Source: Nannocystis sp. RBIL2
GTDB taxonomy: Bacteria > Myxococcota_A > Polyangia > Nannocystales > Nannocystaceae
Direction of reading: 5' to 3'
Assembly: GCF_026626745.1 (NCBI RefSeq)
Contig: NZ_JAPNJW010000001.1
Span: forward strand, 652,311-716,310
DNA length: 64,000 bases
Numbering within the stretch: the stretch's first letter is position 1; each line of letters starts with the position of its first letter. Shown here in pieces: positions 1-10,254 of the stretch. The position numbers and the translations under genes are program-made. The notes beneath the pieces are model-generated. The model saw only the letters and a program-made list of their open reading frames with translations, made no database searches and was not told the DNA's origin.

Positions 1-657
1 GTTGCTGTTCTTCGCCGCCTGCGCCCCGTCGGCGGTGTAGCACGCCCACTGCATGGGCGGGTCGTGCGACAGCTGCCCGTTGGCGTGCATCATCAGCGCG
101 CACTGCTGGGCCTTGGCGTCGAGCCCCGCGTCGTGCTCGACCGCCGGCAGCCCGGCCAGCCAGCGGTACAGGTTGATCAGCTTGAGCGCGTTGTCGCGGC
201 CCGGCGCGCCAGTGTCGCCCGCCTGACAGCCGGCGACCGCCCCGCTCCATGTCCCTTCGGACATGTCCGTTCGGTCCGCCGTCCAGCGCGCGCACACCTC
301 CGCCGCCGGATCGACCGGCTCGCCGGTCGTGGTGGTGATGTCGCCGGTGGTCGTCGAAGCCGCGCCGGACGTCCCGCTGTCGGTCGGACCTGGCCCCGAG
401 GACACCTCGTCCGGCCCCGTGGTCGTGGTCCCGGCGACGCTCGTGCTCGTCGGCTCCTCCGCGGTCGACGCCTCGCTGGGGCCCGCCGCGCTCGCATCGC
501 TCGTCCCCGGTCCGCTGCTCGCCGCGCTCGCGCCGGCGCTCGTCGCCCCGCTCGCGGTCTCGGGCGCGCCGATGCTCTCGGTCACCTCCGCGACGCCCGA
601 ATAGCAGCCGACGACGAGCATGGACATCGACGCGAGGACGACGCGAAACGGCAGCAT
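1..657 (-). CDS. CAP/SCP (PR-1-like) domain lipoprotein; partial, 3' end lies beyond the window start
   Basis: Manual minus-strand translation gives MLPFRVVLASMSMLVVGCYSG (signal peptide plus lipobox), then a Ser/Thr/Gly/Ala-rich linker, then a CAP-like region (...NALKLINLYRWLAGLPAVEHDAGLDAKAQQCALMMHANGQLSHDPPMQWACY...). The frame is GC3-rich. It runs off the window edge, so it is absent from the ORF track. The antisense plus-strand ORF 64..1026 is an Arg/Ala-rich shadow. Confidence 0.5.
   Translation of the reverse strand, partial: MLPFRVVLASMSMLVVGCYSGVAEVTESIGAPETASGATSAGASAASSGPGTSDASAAGPSEASTAEEPTSTSVAGTTTTGPDEVSSGPGPTDSGTSGAASTTTGDITTTTGEPVDPAAEVCARWTADRTDMSEGTWSGAVAGCQAGDTGAPGRDNALKLINLYRWLAGLPAVEHDAGLDAKAQQCALMMHANGQLSHDPPMQWACYTADGAQAAKNSN
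247..274 (+). repeat. CATGYCC-family repeat, 2 units (CCATGTCCC / GGACATGTCC), inside the CAP lipoprotein CDS
   Basis: Seen in the sequence. Confidence 0.7.
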
Positions 658-907
658 CTCCCCCGAATACGACCCAACCGCGGCGACCGTCAACCCGCGC
701 GCCCAGCGGCTCGCGCCCGCTCGTGGGGTCGACGAGCCGCGACGCGATCGCGCGACCCCGCAGTCATATCCTCGCCTCGGTCGACCCGCGATTGCGACCT
801 GCAGCTCGTTCACCTCGGCTTCGCGTCTGCAGACCGTCGACCCGACAGCGAAGTGTGGACCGACGACGCGCTCCGCAGCGCTCGAGCTCGCGTCGCGCGC
901 CGCGCCG

Positions 908-3232
908 TCAACTCGGCGCCGCGACCTTGCGGCTCTCGGCCACGATCCGCACCAGATCGGCCTCGTCCTCGCACAGCGCCACGATCAGGTCGCCCGGCAC
1001 CAGCGCCTCGTCCGGCCGCGGGTTGACGATCAGCCGCCGCCGCAGCTCCGCGTGCGACGTCCCGCCCGCCGGCGCCTTGCCGCCCGGATCGGCAGCGCGA
1101 TACAGCCCCAGGGGCACCGCGCCGCCGCGGCCTTGCACCTCGAGCAGCGCGCGCCGGGCCTTGCGCCACGGCTGTCCGATGAGCCAGGTCGGCGCCGGCG
1201 CCGTGTAGACCTCGGCGTTGTCGTCGGCGAACGCCACCACGCGGTTGAACAGCTCCGCGAACGCGCGGTCGCGGCACGCCATCACCAGCCAGCGGTGCGC
1301 CAGCGCCTGGCAGTCGACCGGCACCAGCCAGGCCGCGAACGGCGAGAACACCTCCTCGCGCTCCGCCTCCGACGTCTCGACCAGAGTCACCGGCAGCGCC
1401 GGCGCAGTGCGGGCGATCTCCACCGACGTCGCCGCCACCCCGAGCGTCCGCGCCCGCTGACCGCCGCCGATCGGGTCGCGCGCGCACGCCTGATGGACCG
1501 CGCGGGCGATCCGCAGCGGATCGTAGCTGGCCCCCGACCCGTCGCCGTCGCCGAGCACGATCACCCGCGACGCCCGCGGCAGCCGCAGCCCCGCCAGGTC
1601 CTCCGGCACCTCCGGGTTCGAGTGGTGGATCGTCAGCGCCTTGACGCGCGCCAGCTGCAGCCGCACCCGCCGCGGCAGCGCGTCGGACACCACCACGTGC
1701 AGCGGCCGGTGCCGCGTCGGCCCCGGGCTGCGCAGCAGACGGATCAGCGGCAGCATGTCCTCGCGGAAGTTCAGCACCACCAGGTGCTTGTTGAGCCGCC
1801 GCCACAGCCGCGTCTGCTCCTGCGCGAAGATGTTGGTCAGCGTCGCGGTGAACCACGCCAAAAGGCCCAGCCCGAGGATCGTCGCCGCCGCCCCGACCAG
1901 CCGCGCCGTCGGCGTCTTCAGCGTCTCGGTCGTGAAGTTGCCGGTGGCGAACGTGTTCATCTCCCAGAACGAGTCGTTCAGCGTCCGCAGCCTGGCGTTC
2001 GAGTCATGTTCCAAAGACCAGACGATGAACGTCGACAGCGTCACCACGCACGCGAACGCGGCGAACGGCACCAGCGGGTTCGACAGCTGGCTCTCGATGC
2101 CCGCGCCCGGGACCCGCCGCCGCCGCAGCGCCCGGCGCACCAGGTACAGCACCACCCCTAGCGCCGCCGCGAACGCCCCGCCCTGCAGCCACGCCTGCCG
2201 GCGCTCGCTGGTCTCGTGCAGCTCGGCCACCGGGTGGAGCGGGATCGGCTCGCGCTCGGCGAACCCGCGCCACTCCACGCGGACCTTGAGGCTCGCGTAC
2301 TGCTCGTCGCGCGCGAGCTTCTTGAGCCCCTGGACCATCGCCTCGACCGCCAACCGGCGGTCGGCCAAAAAGCCCTCGTCTTCCACCCGCTCGCGCGGCG
2401 TCGCCACCAGCACCACCGAGCTCACGCACACCGTCGGCATGCTGTACTCGAGGCCCGGATACGTCCCGGTCTCGATCGGGCAGATCCGGTAGTACGGGTA
2501 GCCGTCGATCAGGCGGTTCAGCACCGCCTCGGGCAGCGGGTTCAGGGTCGCCAGGCCTGACGCCAGCACGTCGCGGATCTCCGCGTGCCCCGGCTCGGTG
2601 GTCCGCAGCATCGTCAGCAGCTCGCGCCGGCTCATCGCCGCCAGCGCCTCGTCGGCCGTGCCCGTGAACAGCGGCAGCTGCTCCGCAGTGTGACCCGCCG
2701 CGCCGAGGATCACCTTCGCCGTCTCGTAGCTGCCCGAGCCGTCCTTGCCCATGAACAGCGGCTCGCGGCCGATGTCGTCGAACTCCTCGAGGCGCACCGG
2801 CCGGCGCACCAGCACGTGGACCGCCGCGTCGGACACCGCCGCGATCACCCGCAGCTCGGCCTTGTCGGCCTCCTCGGGCGACAGCTTGCACATCCAGCCG
2901 CCCTTCGGGATCCCGCTGTCGCCCGCGTCCGCGTCCGCCTGCCCGGCCTTGAACGCCTCCGCCGCCACGTCGTACTGCACCAGCGCCGCGTCGAGCTCGC
3001 CCGACAGCAGCTTGTGGACGTTCTCGCACGAGCCCTTGGTGGACTCCGGCGCGATCGTCACCCGCCCCTCGCCCTGGACCGCCTCGGCCAGGGCGTGCGC
3101 GGTCACGTCGAACCCGCCCTTCTTCGCCCCCGAGCCGAAGCGGACCACGATCGCCTCGCCCGCCTGCGCCGCACCTGTCTGCAGGAACATGCCCAGGAGG
3201 ACAGGCGCCATCGGCCATGTCCGCGAGGACAT
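908..3232 (-). CDS. TAXI-family TRAP-type substrate-binding domain fused to a 2-TM ion-channel pore and RCK (TrkA-N/TrkA-C) domains
   Basis: ORF 908..3763 trimmed to ATG 3232 (MSSRTWPMAPVLLGMFLQTGAAQA, signal peptide); an alternative ATG lies at 3211. TAXI hallmarks are present (IVVRFGSGAKKGGFDVT...ESTKGSCENVHKLLSGELDAALVQYDVA). Then come TM helices and a pore-like loop (FWEMNTFATGNFTTE), followed by a Rossmann-type RCK (HLVVLNFREDMLPLIRLL) and a TrkA-C-like end (VPGDLIVALCEDEADLVRIV). The N-terminal 177 codons of the ORF are Gly/Arg-rich junk. Confidence 0.65.
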   Translation of the reverse strand: MSSRTWPMAPVLLGMFLQTGAAQAGEAIVVRFGSGAKKGGFDVTAHALAEAVQGEGRVTIAPESTKGSCENVHKLLSGELDAALVQYDVAAEAFKAGQADADAGDSGIPKGGWMCKLSPEEADKAELRVIAAVSDAAVHVLVRRPVRLEEFDDIGREPLFMGKDGSGSYETAKVILGAAGHTAEQLPLFTGTADEALAAMSRRELLTMLRTTEPGHAEIRDVLASGLATLNPLPEAVLNRLIDGYPYYRICPIETGTYPGLEYSMPTVCVSSVVLVATPRERVEDEGFLADRRLAVEAMVQGLKKLARDEQYASLKVRVEWRGFAEREPIPLHPVAELHETSERRQAWLQGGAFAAALGVVLYLVRRALRRRRVPGAGIESQLSNPLVPFAAFACVVTLSTFIVWSLEHDSNARLRTLNDSFWEMNTFATGNFTTETLKTPTARLVGAAATILGLGLLAWFTATLTNIFAQEQTRLWRRLNKHLVVLNFREDMLPLIRLLRSPGPTRHRPLHVVVSDALPRRVRLQLARVKALTIHHSNPEVPEDLAGLRLPRASRVIVLGDGDGSGASYDPLRIARAVHQACARDPIGGGQRARTLGVAATSVEIARTAPALPVTLVETSEAEREEVFSPFAAWLVPVDCQALAHRWLVMACRDRAFAELFNRVVAFADDNAEVYTAPAPTWLIGQPWRKARRALLEVQGRGGAVPLGLYRAADPGGKAPAGGTSHAELRRRLIVNPRPDEALVPGDLIVALCEDEADLVRIVAESRKVAAPS

Positions 3233-3238
3233 GCCCCG
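3186..3238 (+). repeat. CATGYCC-family array, ~4 units at 14-bp period, overlapping the start codon of the TAXI-channel gene
   Basis: AACATGCCC...GCCATGTCC..GGACATGCCCC. Confidence 0.65.
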
Positions 3239-3339
3239 ACGGCCAGCCCACCGCGCGGCCCGTCGCGCCCACGACGAGCTCGCTTTTTCGGCGCGCTCGT
3301 CTGGCGCGGCCGCGCCGTCCTGCCTCCGCTCCCCGCGTC

Positions 3340-4128
3340 TCACTCGGCCTCCCCGGTCAGCACCAGCAGCGCGCTCGCGTCGCGCAGCGGGCGGGCGGGC
3401 GACGGGCTCAGCAGCATCGCGTCCGAACCGCCCTCGCCGGGCGCGAACAGCCCGATCAGCGTCACCGGGCGGCCGCGGCGGTCGACCTCCACGTTCAGGC
3501 AGGCCTCGCGGAACGTCCCCGCGCGCAGCTCCGGCGGCACCGGCCAGGTCTCGACGCGCAGGCGCCCGCCGAGCAGCGCCAGCATGAAGCGGAACGCCCC
3601 GAGGTCGACGCACGCGTGGGCCAGCAGCGCCGCCCGCAGAAAGCCCGGGTAGAAGATCGTCGCCACCCCCAGGCCCTCGAACTCGTGGGTGGCCTCCGGG
3701 TCCTCGACCGCCACCACCACGTGCGGCGGCTTGCCCTTGCAGGCGCGCAGGATCGCCGTGCACACTAGGCGCGAGAACGCGTCGGTCTCGCCGTGGCCGC
3801 GCAGCGGCAGCACGATGATCGCGTCGGCCGCCGGCAAGCCGGCGGTGTCGGCGAAGAAGCGCGCCAGCGCCTCGACCCCGCCGCTCGCCGAACCCTGCCA
3901 GTACTTTTGGACATGTCCCGCGGGCAACTCGGCCAGCGCCGCCGCGACCGCGTCGGCGGGCGCCGGCCCGATCAGCGTCAGCTCCGGCGCCGGCTCTGCC
4001 GCCGCGATCGCGCGCACCAGCCCGAGCGCCTCCGGCGTCCAGTGGATCACCACCCAGCGCGGCCTCGTCGGCCCTAAAAGCCCCGTTGCGAGCTCCTCCG
4101 CCGCCGCAGTGTCCCCGCGCTCCGTCAC
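3340..4128 (-). CDS. hypothetical protein with a Rossmann-like fold
   Basis: ORF 3340..4239. The diverse, GC3-rich part starts near ...PRWVVIHWTPEALGLVRAIAAA.... A candidate GTG start at 4128 is in frame. The far N-terminus of the ORF is Arg-rich junk, so the start is uncertain. Confidence 0.4.
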   Translation of the reverse strand: MTERGDTAAAEELATGLLGPTRPRWVVIHWTPEALGLVRAIAAAEPAPELTLIGPAPADAVAAALAELPAGHVQKYWQGSASGGVEALARFFADTAGLPAADAIIVLPLRGHGETDAFSRLVCTAILRACKGKPPHVVVAVEDPEATHEFEGLGVATIFYPGFLRAALLAHACVDLGAFRFMLALLGGRLRVETWPVPPELRAGTFREACLNVEVDRRGRPVTLIGLFAPGEGGSDAMLLSPSPARPLRDASALLVLTGEAE

Positions 4129-4542
4129 GCCGCCGCAGCGTCCGCCCCGGCGCGCCCGCCTGTCAAGCCGACTCCCCGCCTTTCGTCGCCGACACGATCG
4201 CTCGCGCCGATCGACGCGGCCACCTGTCCTGCCCGGCATCGTCGGCCGCGCGCTCCAGCCTCACGCCGATCGTCTGCGCCACTCGTCGCCGCGCGCGTGC
4301 ACCGAGACCTCGCGAATCCATCTCGCGTGGCGACTCGCCGCAGATGAACATGACCTCATCCAGCGCGCGCCCTCGCTTCGCTGCCACCGCCGCGTTGCGG
4401 GCCGCGCCTGGCTCGGCGCGGCCGCCCGGACTCGCCGCGCGCGTGATAGCGTCGGCGCCTGCGCTCCACCGAGATCCTCGCGCTGGCGCTCATCGCGCTG
4501 GTCTCCTTCGGCCTCAGCTACATCGGCGCCACCGTCGGCCTG

Positions 4543-5250
4543 GTGCTCGGTCAGCTGCGGGTGGCCCTCCTCGTCTACGCCCTCGGCAGCCCCGCCGCCG
4601 GGGCCGCCACCAGCCTCGCCATCTCCACCGCCGGCACCCTCACCGGCACCTGGCGCCACGCCCGCGACGGCCGCGTCAGCCTGTGGCTGCTGGCCAGCGT
4701 CGGCGCGCCCTCGGCCGTCGCCGCCTTCGCCACCGCGCGCTGGGCCGGCAGCGTCGACGCCCGCCTCCTCAAGGCCGCCATCGCCGGCGTCCTCCTGCTC
4801 ACCGGCGCCGCCATGCTGCGCCGCCGGCCCGAGCCCGCCGGTCCCTCCGAACATGTCCCTTCGCGCACCTTCGCCGTCCTCGCCGAGGTCGTCGTCGGCG
4901 CCGTCCTCGGCGCGATCTCGGGCCTCGTCGGCCTCCTCCTCGGCAGCCTGCGCCTGCCGGCCATGATCCGCTACGCCCGCGTCCCCCCGCCCGTGGCCGT
5001 CGGCACCAACATGGCGATCGGCGCAGTCACCGGGCTGTCGGCCGGCGTCGCCACCTTCCTCCAAGGACAGGTCGACCTCACCGCCTTCGCGGTCGTCACC
5101 CCGCTCACCCTGCTCGGCGCCAACCTCGGCGCTCGCCGCACCGGCGACCTCGACCCCGACAGCCTGCGCCGCTGGATCGCCTGGATCCTGCTCCTGTCCG
5201 CCGCCCTGATGCTCGGCGAACTCGGCCTCGAGCTCCGGCGCGCGGCTTGA
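4543..5250 (+). CDS. TauE/SafE (DUF81) family membrane protein (putative sulfite/anion exporter)
   Basis: ORF starts at GTG 4543. It is highly hydrophobic with repeated GxxxG TM helices. The in-frame upstream segment (EILALALIALVSFGLSYIGATVG) also looks like a TM helix but has no ATG or GTG, so the true start may be a non-canonical codon or there may be a sequence error. Confidence 0.55.
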   Translation: MLGQLRVALLVYALGSPAAGAATSLAISTAGTLTGTWRHARDGRVSLWLLASVGAPSAVAAFATARWAGSVDARLLKAAIAGVLLLTGAAMLRRRPEPAGPSEHVPSRTFAVLAEVVVGAVLGAISGLVGLLLGSLRLPAMIRYARVPPPVAVGTNMAIGAVTGLSAGVATFLQGQVDLTAFAVVTPLTLLGANLGARRTGDLDPDSLRRWIAWILLLSAALMLGELGLELRRAA

Positions 5251-5421: not shown

Positions 5422-7304
5422 GTGTCCGAGCGCGACCGCTTCCTCGCCTTCGCCGCCCGGGCCGTGCCAGTCGCGTTCGGCGCCCGGCCGGCGCCCGGCG
5501 AGCTCGCCGCGCACTGGCGGGCCGCGACCCAGGCGATCGGCGCTCGCCTCGTCCTCGCCTGCGCGCGCGAGCGCCTCGTCGAATTCGACCTCCAGGACAT
5601 GTCCCTTCGCACATGTTCCTTGAGCCTCCCGCTGCGGCGGCGCCGGGCCTTCGAGCTGCACGCCGCCGACCTCGACGGCCCCGACCTCCCCGACCTCCCC
5701 GACCTCCTCCCGCGCCTCTTGCCCGCGCTCGCCCCCGCGGCTCGCGCCCGGATCGCGCGCGAGCTCGCCGACAGCCGCTGGAACCTCGCGCTCGCCCGCC
5801 TCGCCGCCGACCTGCGCCATCGGACATGCTCCGAAGGCCAGGCTTGGCCCGCCCCGCTCGACCCCGAGAACCTGGTCGTCGACGGCCACCCGTGGCACCC
5901 GATGAGCAAGACCCGGCTCGGCCTGCGCGCCTGGGAGAACCTGCGCCACGGCCCCGACCTCCTGGCCCAGGCGGCAGTCCACGCCGTCGACGTCGCCGCC
6001 GACCACGCCCAGCTGGCCGAGCCGGCCCTCTACGCCGACCTCGCGCGCGCCCTGTTCCCGGCCCCCCCGCCCGGCCTCGTCCGCCTGCCCGTCCACCCCC
6101 TCCAGCTGCGCCGCCTCCCGCGCCTGCTCGGCCCGCTGTGGGGCCGCGAGGTCCGTCCGGCCGGCCTGCCTCCGCTCCACGCGCGCGCCCTGCTCAGCCT
6201 GCGCACCGTCGCCCTCGTCGCGCCCGCGCTGCACCTCAAGCTCGCCGTCGACATCCACACCACCAGCGCGCGGCGCCAGGTCTCGCCCGCCTCGGTGCAC
6301 AACGGCCCGGCGATCGCCGCCCTCCTGGCCGCGATCCAGGCCGCCGACCCGCAGACCCGCCGCGGCCTGCAGATCCAGCCCGACCTCGCCGCCGCCGGCC
6401 TGCACCCCCGCCACGGCCCCGGCGCCGGCCAGCTCGGCGTCGTCCTCCGCCCCGACCCCGCCGCCCTCGCCCAAGAGCTCCACGCCGACCTCACCGCACC
6501 CGCCGACCCATCCGGCGCGACGCCGACCGCCCCCGGCACCGCGCCTGCCCCTGAGCACCTGTCCTCCGCGACATATCCCTCGGAACATGCCCCCGAGGAC
6601 CTGTCCCGTGCGACATATTTATTAGAGCATGTCCGATCGCGCACCCCGCAGCTGGTCGTCTGCGCCGCCCTCGGCGAGCGCCGGCCTGGGGGCGACCTCT
6701 TGTTGCGCGAGCTCGCCGCCGACTACCCCGGCGATCCGCGCGCGCGCCTCGCGGCCTTCTTCGCCGACTACCTCGACCTCCTCGTCCCCGCGGCCCTGCG
6801 CCTGCTCACCGCCCACGGCGTCGCCCTCGAGGCGCATCTACAAAACACCCTCCTCGTCCACGCCGGGCGCCCCTGCGGCTTCGTCGTCCGCGACCTCGGC
6901 GGAGTGCGGCTCCACCGCGGGCGGCTGGCCGCGGCCGGCCACGCCCCCGCGCTCGCGCCCGACTCCTTCACCTTGACCTCCGACCTCGCCGAGGCTCAGG
7001 GCAAGCTGTTACACACCCTCGTGCACGCCCACCTCGCGGCTGTGATCGGTTGGGTCGACGACGCCGGCGGCCCCGACCCCGACGCCCTGTGGCCCGCGGT
7101 GCGGCGGATCTGCCAGCGCGAGTGGGACCGCTGGGCCACCGATCCGGCGCTCGCGCGCGCGTGCGCCGACGATCGCGCGTTCTTCTTCGCGGCTACCTGC
7201 CGCAGCAAGGCGCTGCTGCGCATGCGCATCGACGAACGCGTCAGCGATTACGCCTATACCGAGGTCGCCAACGCGCTCGCCGAGGGGTACTCTTCCCCCG
7301 CCGC

Positions 7305-7308
<4 letters not shown>
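5422..7308 (+). CDS. IucA/IucC-family (NRPS-independent siderophore synthetase-like) protein
   Basis: Family hallmarks are present ([28 protein letters not shown]). The stop overlaps the next start as ATGA. Two in-frame insertions of the CATGYCC repeat lie inside the CDS, at 5595..5619 and 6553..6638. Confidence 0.7.
5595..5619 (+). repeat. CATGYCC-family, 2 units, in-frame in the IucA/IucC CDS
   Basis: GGACATGTCCCTTCGCACATGTTCC. Confidence 0.7.
6553..6638 (+). repeat. CATGYCC-family array, 6 units at exact 14-bp period, in-frame in the IucA/IucC CDS, with an AT-rich segment (CGACATATTTATTAGAGCATGTCC)
   Basis: Core positions fall at 6557/6570/6584/6598/6612/6626. Confidence 0.8.
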
Positions 7309-8237
<929 letters not shown>

Positions 8238-8252
<15 letters not shown>

Positions 8253-8273
8253 ACCCTGTCCCCGGAGACATTG
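8238..8273 (+). repeat. CATGYCC-family array, 3 units, between the prs-like gene and the nadE start
   Basis: GGACATGTCC..CCCTGTCCCC..GAGACATTG; the nadE ATG follows at 8275. Confidence 0.7.
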
Positions 8274-8274
8274 A

Positions 8275-10254
8275 ATGCACCTCGTCCGCGTCGCCGCCGC
8301 CGCCCTCAACCAGACGCCGCTCGACTGGGACGGCAACCAGGCCCGGATCGTCGAGGCGATCCGCCTGGCCCGCCGGGAGGGCGTCGCCGTCCTGTGCCTG
8401 CCCGAGCTGTGCATCCCCGGCTACGGCTGCGAGGACGCGTTCTTCGGCCGCGGCACGATCCTCGAGTCGTGGCGGATCTTGCAGGAGCTCCTGCCCGAGA
8501 CGAAGGGCATGGTCGTCGCGCTCGGCCTGCCGATCATGCACCGCGCCGCCAACTACAACGCGGTCTGCCTGGTCGCCGACGGCCACATCGTCGGCATGGT
8601 CGGCAAGCGCTTCCTCGCCGGCGACGGCATCCACTACGAGCCGCGGTGGTTCAAGGGCTGGCCGGCCGGCAAGTTCGTGCAGTGGGAGCACGACGGCCAC
8701 AGCTACCCGCTGGGCGACCAGATCTTCGAGGTCGGCGGCCTGCGGATCGGCTTCGAGATCTGCGAGGACGCGTGGGTCCCGAACCGCCCCGGCGTCGAGC
8801 TCGCCAGCCAGGGCGTCGACGTGATCTGCAACCCCAGCGCCAGCCACTTCGCGTTCGGCAAGCACGAGGTGCGCAAGCAGATCGTCCTCAACGCCTCGCG
8901 CAGCTTCCGCGCCACCTACGTCTACTCCAACTTCATCGGCAACGAGGCCGGCCGCGTCATCTACGACGGCGAGTGCATGATCGCCTCGTCCGGCCACCTG
9001 ATCGCCGAGGGCCCGCGGCTCGGCTACAAGGACGTCTACGTCACCAGCGCCGTGGTCGACGTCGACCTCGCGCGCATGGTCCACGCGCGCACGACCTACG
9101 CGCCCACGGTCGACGACAACGTCCGCCGGATCACCCGGTTCGACATGCAGCTGCCGACCGCCGACCTGCCGCCGCACGCCAACGCCCCCGACGACGCGCT
9201 GCGCAACGACAAGCGCGAGGAGTTCTCGCGCGCCGTCGCCCTCGGCCTGTTCGACTACCTGCGCAAGAGCCGGTCGCGCGGCTTCGTCGTCTCGCTCAGC
9301 GGCGGCGCCGACTCGGCCGCAGTCGCCTACCTCGTCCACCTCATGGTCACTCTGGCCACGCAGGAGCTCGGCGTCGCGGCGACCTGCGCCCGCCTCGGCC
9401 TGCCCGAGGGTTCGTGCACCACCCCGCGGGCGATCGTGCGTGCCCTCCTGACCTGCGTCTACCAGGCGACCGCCAACAGCTCCGACACCACCCGTAATGC
9501 CGCCCGCGCGGTCGCCGAGGCCGTCGGCGCCGAATTCCTCGAGTTCGACGTCGACCCGCTGGTGCGCGCCTACGTGCGCACGGTCGAGGGCGCGATCGGC
9601 CGCGAGCTCGGCTGGAAGAGCGACGACATCGCCCTGCAGAACATCCAGGCCCGCGCCCGCGCCCCTGGCGTGTGGCTGCTGGCCAACTTGCGCGGCGCCC
9701 TCCTGCTGGCCACCAGCAACCGCAGCGAGGCCGCCGTCGGCTACGCCACCATGGACGGCGACACCTGCGGCGGCCTGTCGCCGATCGCCGGCATCGACAA
9801 GGCCTTCCTGCGCCAGTGGCTGCGGTGGGTCGAGCACGAGGGCCCCGCCGGCGTCGGCCCCACGCCCGCCCTGAGCGCCGTCAACGTCCAGGCCCCGACC
9901 GCCGAGCTGCGGCCCGCCGGCGCCAAACAGACCGACGAGGACGACCTGATGCCGTACCCGATCCTCGACGTCATCGAGCGCGCCGCCATCCGCGACAAGC
10001 TCGCGCCGAAAGAGGTCTACCGGGTCCTCGCCAGCCGCTTCCCCGAGCACGGCCGCGACCAGCTGCTGCTGTGGATCAAGCGGTTCTTCCGCCTGTGGAG
10101 CCAGAACCAGTGGAAGCGCGAGCGCTACGCCCCGAGCTTCCACCTCGACGACGAGAACCTCGACCCCAAGACGTGGTGCCGCTTCCCGATCCTCTCGGGC
10201 GGCTTCGCCCGCGAGCTCACCGAGCTCGACAACGTCGTGCCGAAGAGCGGCTGA
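8275..10254 (+). CDS. nadE: glutamine-dependent NAD+ synthetase (N-terminal CN-hydrolase plus NAD synthase domain)
   Basis: A 659-aa ORF with a nitrilase-type N-terminal half (GFEICEDAW) and an NAD synthetase C-terminal half (VVSLSGGADSAAVAYL). Codon usage is clean. Confidence 0.85.
   Translation: MHLVRVAAAALNQTPLDWDGNQARIVEAIRLARREGVAVLCLPELCIPGYGCEDAFFGRGTILESWRILQELLPETKGMVVALGLPIMHRAANYNAVCLVADGHIVGMVGKRFLAGDGIHYEPRWFKGWPAGKFVQWEHDGHSYPLGDQIFEVGGLRIGFEICEDAWVPNRPGVELASQGVDVICNPSASHFAFGKHEVRKQIVLNASRSFRATYVYSNFIGNEAGRVIYDGECMIASSGHLIAEGPRLGYKDVYVTSAVVDVDLARMVHARTTYAPTVDDNVRRITRFDMQLPTADLPPHANAPDDALRNDKREEFSRAVALGLFDYLRKSRSRGFVVSLSGGADSAAVAYLVHLMVTLATQELGVAATCARLGLPEGSCTTPRAIVRALLTCVYQATANSSDTTRNAARAVAEAVGAEFLEFDVDPLVRAYVRTVEGAIGRELGWKSDDIALQNIQARARAPGVWLLANLRGALLLATSNRSEAAVGYATMDGDTCGGLSPIAGIDKAFLRQWLRWVEHEGPAGVGPTPALSAVNVQAPTAELRPAGAKQTDEDDLMPYPILDVIERAAIRDKLAPKEVYRVLASRFPEHGRDQLLLWIKRFFRLWSQNQWKRERYAPSFHLDDENLDPKTWCRFPILSGGFARELTELDNVVPKSG

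Follow-up and report, generated by a model that had tools for sequence, protein, structure and literature searches.

A Nannocystis gene pair proposed to encode a TAXI-coupled, RCK-regulated P-loop channel

Within a stretch of 64,000 nucleotides from Nannocystis sp. RBIL2 (contig NZ_JAPNJW010000001.1, positions 652,311 to 716,310 of the forward strand; hereafter the window), a gene on the reverse strand joins a TAXI-type solute-binding domain to a pore-loop (P-loop) membrane module and a cytoplasmic RCK domain in a single polypeptide, and the gene directly upstream encodes a second, soluble RCK protein. Our preferred reading, to which we give a probability of about 0.6, is that the two genes form an operon for a binding-protein-coupled, RCK-regulated tetrameric P-loop channel. 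Directly shown are the domain content, the logic of the topology, the homology to channels and to RCK rings, the paralogy of the partner and the conservation of the gene pair. We found no description of a TAXI-channel fusion in the literature, and a survey of prokaryotic glutamate-receptor relatives (PMC2950845) mentions neither TAXI nor RCK. The pair and the parts of the fusion protein are set out below, in the order of the encoded chain (aa, amino acids; TM, transmembrane).

908..3232, (-) strand: TAXI/pore/RCK fusion gene, complete, 774 aa, with its stop codon at 908-910
3161..3232, (-) strand: signal-peptide-like N-terminus, residues 1-24, MSSRTWPMAPVLLGMFLQTGAAQA followed by GE, read from the sequence
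2213..3157, (-) strand: predicted periplasmic TAXI solute-binding domain, residues 26-340, from PF16868, TIGR02122 and solved structures
2138..2194, (-) strand: TM0, linker helix, residues 347-365, a hydropathy peak and a helix in the structural model
2009..2080, (-) strand: M1, outer pore helix, residues 385-408, from hydropathy and model helix 48-72 of the C-terminal part
1910..2008, (-) strand: turret, pore helix and filter loop, residues 409-441, model helix 79-90 followed by a loop
1823..1909, (-) strand: M2, inner pore helix, residues 442-470, from hydropathy, model helix 102-140 and alignment
911..1786, (-) strand: tethered cytoplasmic RCK domain, residues ~483-774, a Rossmann-type N-lobe and a C-lobe, interrupted by two disordered insertions
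3340..4128, (-) strand: upstream partner, a soluble RCK protein of 262 aa, from hhalign, model and Foldseek

The fusion gene and its binding domain

The open reading frame (ORF) at 908-3232(-) translates into 774 aa plus a stop, with no internal stop codon. An earlier reading made from the sequence only had described one polypeptide of 775 aa; the single polypeptide stands, and the length is corrected to 774 aa, the earlier figure having included the stop codon. Because stop codons are scarce at the 73% GC of the window, long open frames (300-950 codons) surround the fusion gene in all six frames, and spurious ones lie within 600-4300, for example 620-2161(+) of 513 aa and 908-3763(-) of 951 aa. 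In a genome of 73% GC, a high GC content at the third codon position (GC3) is the mark of a true coding frame. The GC content by codon position of the fusion gene is 0.73/0.50/0.96, a pattern shared by the genuine neighbouring genes, whereas the in-frame upstream extension to 3763 has a GC3 of 0.58 and the overlapping ORFs in other frames lie at 0.49-0.80. GC3 thus divides real frames (0.95-0.96) from false ones (0.49-0.80) within this region.

Orthologues of 774-775 aa are found in Nannocystis exedens (93% identity) and N. pusilla (89%), each covering 100% of the fusion protein, and its C-terminal half is 99% identical to that of N. pusilla Na p29, which identifies the source of the window as N. 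pusilla or a very near relative. It was also conceivable that two genes, separated by an undetected frameshift or stop, had been read as one; the stop-free frame and the full coverage by orthologues show a single gene with no frameshift. More generally, the view that the ORF is an artefact, either a chance frame in GC-rich DNA or two genes fused by a sequencing error, could draw on the abundance of long frames at this base composition and on one N. pusilla copy that is split into out-of-frame pieces. Set against it are the GC3 contrast with the competing frames, more than 100 full-length homologues that share the architecture, and the repetition of the arrangement at 38 genome loci, and we regard the artefact as ruled out for practical purposes. 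The split copy (P0083, from another N. pusilla assembly, 474 aa) has residues 1-231 in frame at 97% identity and the rest out of frame; the gene is disrupted by frameshifts in that assembly, which could mean a sequencing error or a pseudogene.

The TAXI fold itself was confirmed with two profiles above their curated cut-offs: PF16868 (NMT1_3) matches the fusion protein at 3e-24 (86.6 bits, cut-off 27), and TIGR02122 at 88.6 bits (cut-off 84.35). The solved TAXI structure 1us4/1us5 matches at 1.8e-15 over residues 11-337, thus covering both lobes (1us4 at 1.6e-14 in a separate search); a profile of the family retrieves TAXI structures from the PDB at 1.8e-28, and other solved TAXI proteins (8s4j, 9oz4 and 8u79) align as well. 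Among 49 family members the binding-loop motifs TxGSC, VQYD and GSGS (GSGSxET) are at least 90% conserved. Specific to the family within this domain are cysteines 69, 115, 251 and 269, which may pair as disulfides, and an insertion around GGWMC. The N-terminus resembles a signal peptide, with a hydrophobic h-region followed by AQA and then G, between which we placed the putative cleavage site by eye. Identity in this segment is only 0.22, and signal peptides are usually poorly conserved. Topology, too, suggests a periplasmic place for the domain: the number of TM helices is odd, and a cytoplasmic RCK domain then calls for an N-terminal domain on the outer side of the membrane.

In the TAXI protein VcGluP, Y45 and Q93 are the two most influential glutamate-binding residues (PMC12344293). 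These were mapped onto the fusion protein through the alignment with 8s4j, where a single offset of 28 places them at chain positions 17 and 65. Q93 corresponds to Q86 of the fusion protein and is kept; Y45 corresponds to F41, and Phe is also the family consensus. Judged from these residues, a glutamate-like ligand for the TAXI domain is possible but not supported. The surroundings of the fusion gene contain no gene for a TRAP or GltS membrane component; its neighbours encode the RCK protein, a TauE protein, an IucA/IucC protein and a lipoprotein, and four other genera present the same picture. The fusion carries a TAXI domain and is not a TRAP transporter subunit.

The pore module and the two RCK proteins

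Hydropathy reveals three hydrophobic segments, at residues 347-365, 385-408 and 442-470. TM0, the first of them, is the least conserved of the segments compared (0.29) and is followed by an Arg-rich cytoplasmic loop (366-384) with 6 K/R. Given an exported N-terminal domain, the chain starts on the outside, passes inwards as TM0, outwards as M1 and inwards again as M2. The three segments together with the positively charged loop thus turn the P-loop towards the periplasm and the RCK domain towards the cytoplasm, which is the orientation of K channels. Between the second and third segments lies the motif FWEMNTFATGNFTTE (residues 422-436), within which ATGNF (429-433) occupies the position of the filter. 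Across the 49 sequences the residues F, W, M, F, A, T, G, N and F of the pore stretch are invariant, and conservation peaks in the turret and pore helix (0.90) and in M2 (0.80), the highest values in the whole protein.

M1 of the fusion aligns with M1 of K channels, and the LGLG motif of M2 aligns with the hinge glycine of MthK. In the pore alignment, for which the MthK and KcsA sequences were checked against their known numbering, FATGNF lies opposite TTVGYG with a one-residue deletion. FATGNF does not fit the K+ signature filter T-V/I-G-Y/F-G; with no TVGYG and a filter one residue shorter, a K+ channel label for the protein is ruled out. Because ATGNF is shorter by one residue and lacks GYG, the sequence suggests that the pore is probably a P-loop-type, non-K+-selective cation pathway.

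An AlphaFold model of residues 340-774, built as a monomer from the 49 sequences, consists of a helix, a pore helix (418-429), a loop, a long helix, a Rossmann-type lobe and a C-lobe. When this model was compared with the PDB using Foldseek, full-length MthK was the top match (7.9e-15), followed by Slo2.2, BK, GsuK and CASTOR, and the modelled pore matches MthK, KcsA and NaK. The tethered RCK domain matches solved RCK rings. A phmmer search of 1.8 billion representative proteins with the C-terminal module retrieved P0143 (E=1.5e-8) and P0145 (E=3.6e-8), which represent a type of stand-alone protein of about 360-400 aa with Ion_trans_2 (2.5e-17 in P0143) and Slo-like_RCK. Lig_chan matches are seen below threshold in 27 of the 49 family members (best 7.7e-4; E 0.011-0.05 for the fusion protein), as are Slo-like_RCK in 15 and TrkA_C in 6; NCBIfam makes no pore or RCK call for the fusion protein. 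Since neither library calls a pore or an RCK domain in the fusion protein itself, both were assigned from the fold matches, from profile comparison and by transitive sequence homology.

The sequence-only reading had named TM helices flanking a non-TVGYG pore loop, followed by TrkA-N and TrkA-C domains. A P-loop module of that kind is upheld by the fold matches and by the phmmer hits, but Ion_trans_2 finds no match in Pfam. Likewise, the cytoplasmic region is RCK by fold, by profile and by transitive homology, whereas the Pfam TrkA_N and TrkA_C domains are not significant. With the TAXI domain, the three modules of the sequence-only reading are thus found in one unbroken chain, and its interpretation is supported, ligand gating and ion selectivity being proposals. 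A GxGxxG dinucleotide motif was not found in either RCK sequence; the first strand is followed by VVLNFREDM in the fusion protein and by VVIHWTPEA in its upstream partner.

The upstream gene had been described as encoding a Rossmann-like protein, and the comparison by hhalign, a structural model and Foldseek extends this to a complete RCK domain, so that the gene carries more weight than the earlier reading gave it. The protein shares 98% identity with one annotated in N. pusilla and has 98 homologues, all labelled 'hypothetical'; no Pfam family is assigned to it, TrkA_N reaching E=0.05. Its family aligns by hhalign with the cytoplasmic region of the fusion at a probability of 96.6% (E=6e-10, 259 columns). 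BLASTP of the upstream protein against the C-terminal region of the fusion gives nothing (E=0.41), and the paralogy is seen by profile-profile comparison alone. The model of the upstream protein (predicted local distance difference test score, pLDDT, 82.3) is made up of six beta-alpha units, a pair of crossover helices and a C-lobe rich in beta structure. Foldseek matches it to the RCK domain of MthK (1.2e-9) and also to the CASTOR and DMI1 rings, Slo and TrkA; KtrC is a further fold match of the RCK regions. The upstream protein is thus a free, full-length paralogue of the tethered RCK domain.

Wherever a fetched locus includes enough upstream DNA, the partner gene directly precedes the fusion gene in the same orientation. 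The stop and start codons of the pair usually overlap, by 4 base pairs (bp) in Paraliomyxa, Plesiocystis and strain ST9, and by one base in a metagenome contig, and the pairing persists in a relative of 32% identity (L044). In the window the two genes are separated by 107 bp, within which there is no terminator-like site; neither a sigma-70-like promoter nor an intrinsic terminator was found in 600-4700, and no Rfam family in 3150-4650, so that no riboswitch points to a ligand. One metagenome protein from the Joint Genome Institute (P0407, 426 aa) matches the upstream RCK protein (78% over 43% of it) and carries PF16868 too; it could be a natural fusion of both genes or a gene-calling error.

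Relatives, neighbours and known systems

The subfamily defined by FATGNF was found at 38 loci in a set of species-representative genomes, all from Nannocystaceae or unclassified Myxococcota/Polyangia. Versions of 1086-1151 aa (P0011-P0014, P0016 and P0035), the named ones from Enhygromyxa, Plesiocystis and Pseudenhygromyxa, contain two complete tandem TAXI domains, a two-layer extracellular arrangement. The tandem copies match the TAXI domain of the fusion protein at ~1e-62 to 1e-94, the first copy of P0016 being found in two pieces.

Beyond the subfamily, long distant relatives, which are 19-39% identical to the distant fusion P0146, begin with a TAXI domain (NMT1_3) and continue with channel domains in 39 of 40 cases. 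Their further domains, among the same 40, are Slo-like_RCK (33), Castor_Poll_mid (22), TrkA_N (18) and Ion_trans_2 (9). Their filters are likewise non-canonical, SGLED and SGFED being examples, and their amino-acid composition points to hosts that range from GC-rich to AT-rich. The channel half of one distant fusion shares ~50% identity with stand-alone proteins labelled 'potassium channel family' in cyanobacteria, Planctomycetota, Calditrichaeota and others, which have two TM helices and an RCK domain (2TM-RCK) in ~360 aa. On these sequence relationships, we take the TAXI-pore-RCK order to be a recurrent architecture derived from MthK/CASTOR-like 2TM-RCK channels. At the locus of P0146 (L045) the fusion has clear TrkA_N and Slo-like_RCK domains, with no upstream RCK gene and no TauE neighbour; the free RCK partner is therefore specific to the FATGNF subfamily. 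The fusion at L045 adjoins a giant surface-protein gene (>7000 aa).

Around the pair, the window contains the following genes.

4543..5250, (+) strand: TauE/SafE-family membrane transporter (PF01925, 4e-34), divergent from the pair
5422-7308, (+) strand: siderophore-synthetase-type gene, IucA/IucC and FhuF-like
7299-8252, (+) strand: ribose-phosphate pyrophosphokinase-like gene
8275-10254, (+) strand: long ORF, NAD-synthetase-like by eye from the sequence
1-~660, (-) strand: predicted lipoprotein (MLPFRVVLASMSMLVVGC...), first part only; the gene follows the fusion gene in the same orientation and is cut off by the end of the window

Besides the window, 33 fetched loci and the metagenome relative of 32% identity (L044:2077-2853) have the TauE gene next to the pair. 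Across these loci the order is conserved, with TauE diverging from the RCK gene and the TAXI-channel gene following it; only adjacency ties TauE to the pair, and its membership of the system is uncertain. None of the genes in 5422-10254(+) is a TRAP membrane component. The predicted lipoprotein was called from a GC3 of 0.90 and its translation, in which a long linker rich in Ser, Thr and Gly and a C-terminal domain with Cys can be read.

Of the known systems, MthK, the Ca2+-gated K+ channel of Methanothermobacter, and related prokaryotic 2TM-RCK channels are closest in fold to the C-terminal module as a whole. The fusion shares with MthK the order M1, pore helix, filter, M2 and one tethered RCK domain, and neither has the GxGxxG nucleotide motif. 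In MthK the RCK ring is completed by a free RCK copy that comes from an internal start codon in the one gene; the paralogous upstream gene suggests a ring completed in a similar manner here, with the difference that the free RCK comes from a separate, diverged gene. The filters also differ, MthK having the K+-selective TVGYGD in place of ATGNF with its one-residue deletion, and MthK has neither an extracellular domain nor a TM0.

The plant nuclear channels CASTOR, POLLUX and DMI1, which have bacterial 2TM-RCK relatives, also have a non-TVGYG filter with Gly-Asn, which is all that FATGNF has in common with it, and a further likeness is the presence of Castor_Poll_mid in the distant TAXI-fused relatives counted above. 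Within the FATGNF subfamily, in contrast, Castor_Poll_mid matches only 4 of 49 members, weakly. CASTOR differs further in that its chain has four TM helices and carries two RCK domains, where the fusion has one and a separate gene supplies the other, and it lacks a binding domain. Its filter is ADS(A)GNHA, and Asp265 is required for conduction and Ca2+ selectivity (PMC6697748). In an alignment anchored on GN, the position of Asp265 is Ala in the fusion; the essential Asp being missing, a transfer of Ca2+ selectivity from CASTOR was rejected.

An analogy with GluR0 had been drawn when the domains were first read. It holds at the level of working principle: in GluR0 and the ionotropic glutamate receptors, as would be the case here, a bilobed domain of periplasmic-binding-protein type sits on a tetrameric P-loop pore in one chain, and an extracellular ligand controls a cation pore. 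The weak but recurrent Lig_chan similarity in the pore is a further likeness, and 1us4, the first TAXI protein to be solved, was deposited as 'putative GluR0 ligand binding core'. The analogy does not extend to family membership. The binding domain of the fusion is TAXI/NMT1_3, not SBP_bac_3; it is contiguous (26-340) and precedes all TM helices, and is not split into S1 and S2 by the pore; the P-loop enters from the outside, whereas the glutamate-receptor pore is inverted; an additional TM helix and a loop in the cytoplasm link the binding domain to the pore; and the system has an RCK ring. We therefore rejected a place in the glutamate-receptor family on topology and on the undivided binding domain.

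The TAXI proteins of TRAP systems, TtGluBP (1us4/1us5) and VcGluP (8s4j), share the fold and family of the fusion's binding domain, in which the glutamate-binding Gln of VcGluP is kept as Q86. TAXI-GltS fusions, described in 2025 as unprecedented, resemble it in that a TAXI domain has been recruited by gene fusion to a non-TRAP membrane partner (PMC12344293). In the present case the TAXI domain is joined to a pore of channel type, Phe replaces the key Tyr, and the domain has an extra insertion and four conserved cysteines. Trk and Ktr systems (TrkH-TrkA and KtrB-KtrA/C) likewise combine a P-loop membrane unit with a ring that contains a separately encoded soluble RCK/KTN protein. Their membrane subunits, however, are four fused helix-pore loop-helix (M-P-M) repeats with no tethered RCK or binding domain, and their RCK proteins bind nucleotides by a glycine-rich motif that is missing in the fusion pair.

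A proposed mechanism, its rivals and what they would mean

In the mechanism that we propose, the N-terminal signal would export the chain so that the TAXI domain sits in the periplasm. TM0 would return the chain to the cytoplasm, and M1, pore helix, filter and M2 would build the pore, presumably as a tetramer by analogy with known channels, with four periplasmic TAXI domains surrounding its mouth. The C-terminal RCK domains would hang beneath the pore and could co-assemble with free RCK protein into an eight-domain gating ring. Because the two RCK proteins are paralogous and the gene pair is constant, the comparison with known channels suggests a ring of four tethered and four free RCK domains. 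Binding of a ligand would close the TAXI domain, which could then act on the surface of the turret and pore helix, or on TM0, and so bias opening; the RCK ring would exert cytoplasmic control through M2. Since TM0 is poorly conserved and the turret unusually conserved, we speculate that docking of the TAXI domain on the outer mouth is likelier than a pull through TM0. The parts of the scheme that we infer are the oligomeric state and the make-up of the ring, cation conduction and its selectivity, gating by one ligand in the periplasm and another in the cytoplasm, what these two ligands are, and the coupling of ligand to gate.

Several observations weigh against a binding-protein-coupled channel. 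The link between TAXI domain and pore is a weakly conserved helix and a cytoplasmic loop, which offers no pull on a pore helix of the kind known from glutamate receptors. The model of the C-terminal part is moderately confident (mean pLDDT 65.6, predicted template-modelling score 0.43) and is that of a monomer, and its template-modelling scores to full channels are low, at 0.27-0.30. Pfam calls neither a pore nor an RCK domain in the fusion protein, its sole match being Lig_chan at E=0.05, and the family profile, searched against PDB sequences, returned TAXI proteins only and no K channels. The filter ATGNF is without a precedent of known selectivity, the essential Asp of CASTOR being Ala, and the key glutamate-binding Tyr of VcGluP is replaced by Phe in the FATGNF family (PMC12344293). 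Finally, the two genes in the window do not overlap and lie 107 bp apart.

A more specific form of the proposal would make the protein a glutamate-receptor-like bacterial ligand-gated cation channel that evolved independently, in which an extracellular metabolite bound by the TAXI domain opens a non-K+-selective pore and a hetero-octameric RCK ring tunes it from inside. The ligand might then be an amino or organic acid, Na+ or Ca2+ might pass, and TauE might belong to the same circuit. Myxobacteria, as social predators, would thereby gain a chemo-electrical sense of a direct kind. We hold this fuller version only tentatively, and think it rather more probably wrong than right.

Three other accounts would keep the domains and change what they do. 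The pore could be gated from the cytoplasm alone by the RCK ring, with the TAXI domain concentrating a solute at the pore mouth, holding or assembling the complex in the envelope, or signalling to another protein. Consistent with this, TM0 is the sole covalent link between TAXI domain and pore and yet the least conserved segment (0.29), the kin of one distant fusion's channel module are stand-alone 2TM-RCK proteins of ~360 aa without a binding domain, and the tandem TAXI domains of some relatives fit poorly with a simple scheme in which a clamshell pulls the gate. We nevertheless consider it unlikely: the TAXI domain and its binding-loop motifs are conserved alongside the pore across the family, the fusion recurs in 39 of the 40 long distant relatives, and the 0.90 conservation of turret and pore helix suits a docking surface for the TAXI domain. 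Still less likely, in our estimate, is binding-protein-dependent uptake, in which the TAXI domain would hand a solute or ion to a Trk/Ktr-like pore set on an RCK ring, perhaps together with TauE. TAXI proteins are otherwise parts of transporters and have lately been found fused or coupled to the non-TRAP carrier GltS (PMC12344293); in Trk and Ktr, P-loop subunits in the membrane work with free RCK proteins that form rings, the fold matches include TrkA and KtrC, and the TauE/SafE gene is a conserved divergent neighbour. On the other side, the known TAXI ligands, amino and keto acids (PMC12344293), are too large for a filter of K-channel type, each chain has one M1-P-M2 unit, as in channels, where Trk and Ktr have four fused units, and TauE is tied to the pair by adjacency alone. 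Whilst the pore could also be non-conducting, the protein then being a membrane receptor that relays periplasmic binding to the RCK domain and from there to other targets, the invariant filter and hinge-glycine region and the conservation peak in pore helix and M2 point to a working pore under strong selection and make such a receptor very improbable.

Public databases label the fusion proteins 'TAXI family TRAP transporter solute-binding subunit', with one UniRef entry among the homologues noting an RCK N-terminal domain; hundreds of entries with this label are therefore mis-described. GluR0 and the glutamate receptors are usually taken to have arisen when a binding protein became joined to a K+ channel. 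On our preferred reading, that of a binding-protein-coupled channel, the family would be a second, independent solution for a binding-protein-gated tetrameric channel, one that uses another class of binding protein, the K-channel orientation and an extra linker helix and that has retained the RCK ring. It would offer a natural experiment on how clamshell closure is coupled to a pore and how signals from outside and inside are integrated. The separately encoded RCK paralogue makes the composition of the ring accessible to genetics, and the invariant ATGNF is a new sequence for the study of ion selectivity. The role of TAXI proteins, seen as parts of TRAP systems only until the TAXI-GltS report of 2025 (PMC12344293), would be broadened as well. 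For the organisms themselves, the gene pair is a candidate myxobacterial sensor that would couple extracellular metabolites to membrane potential.

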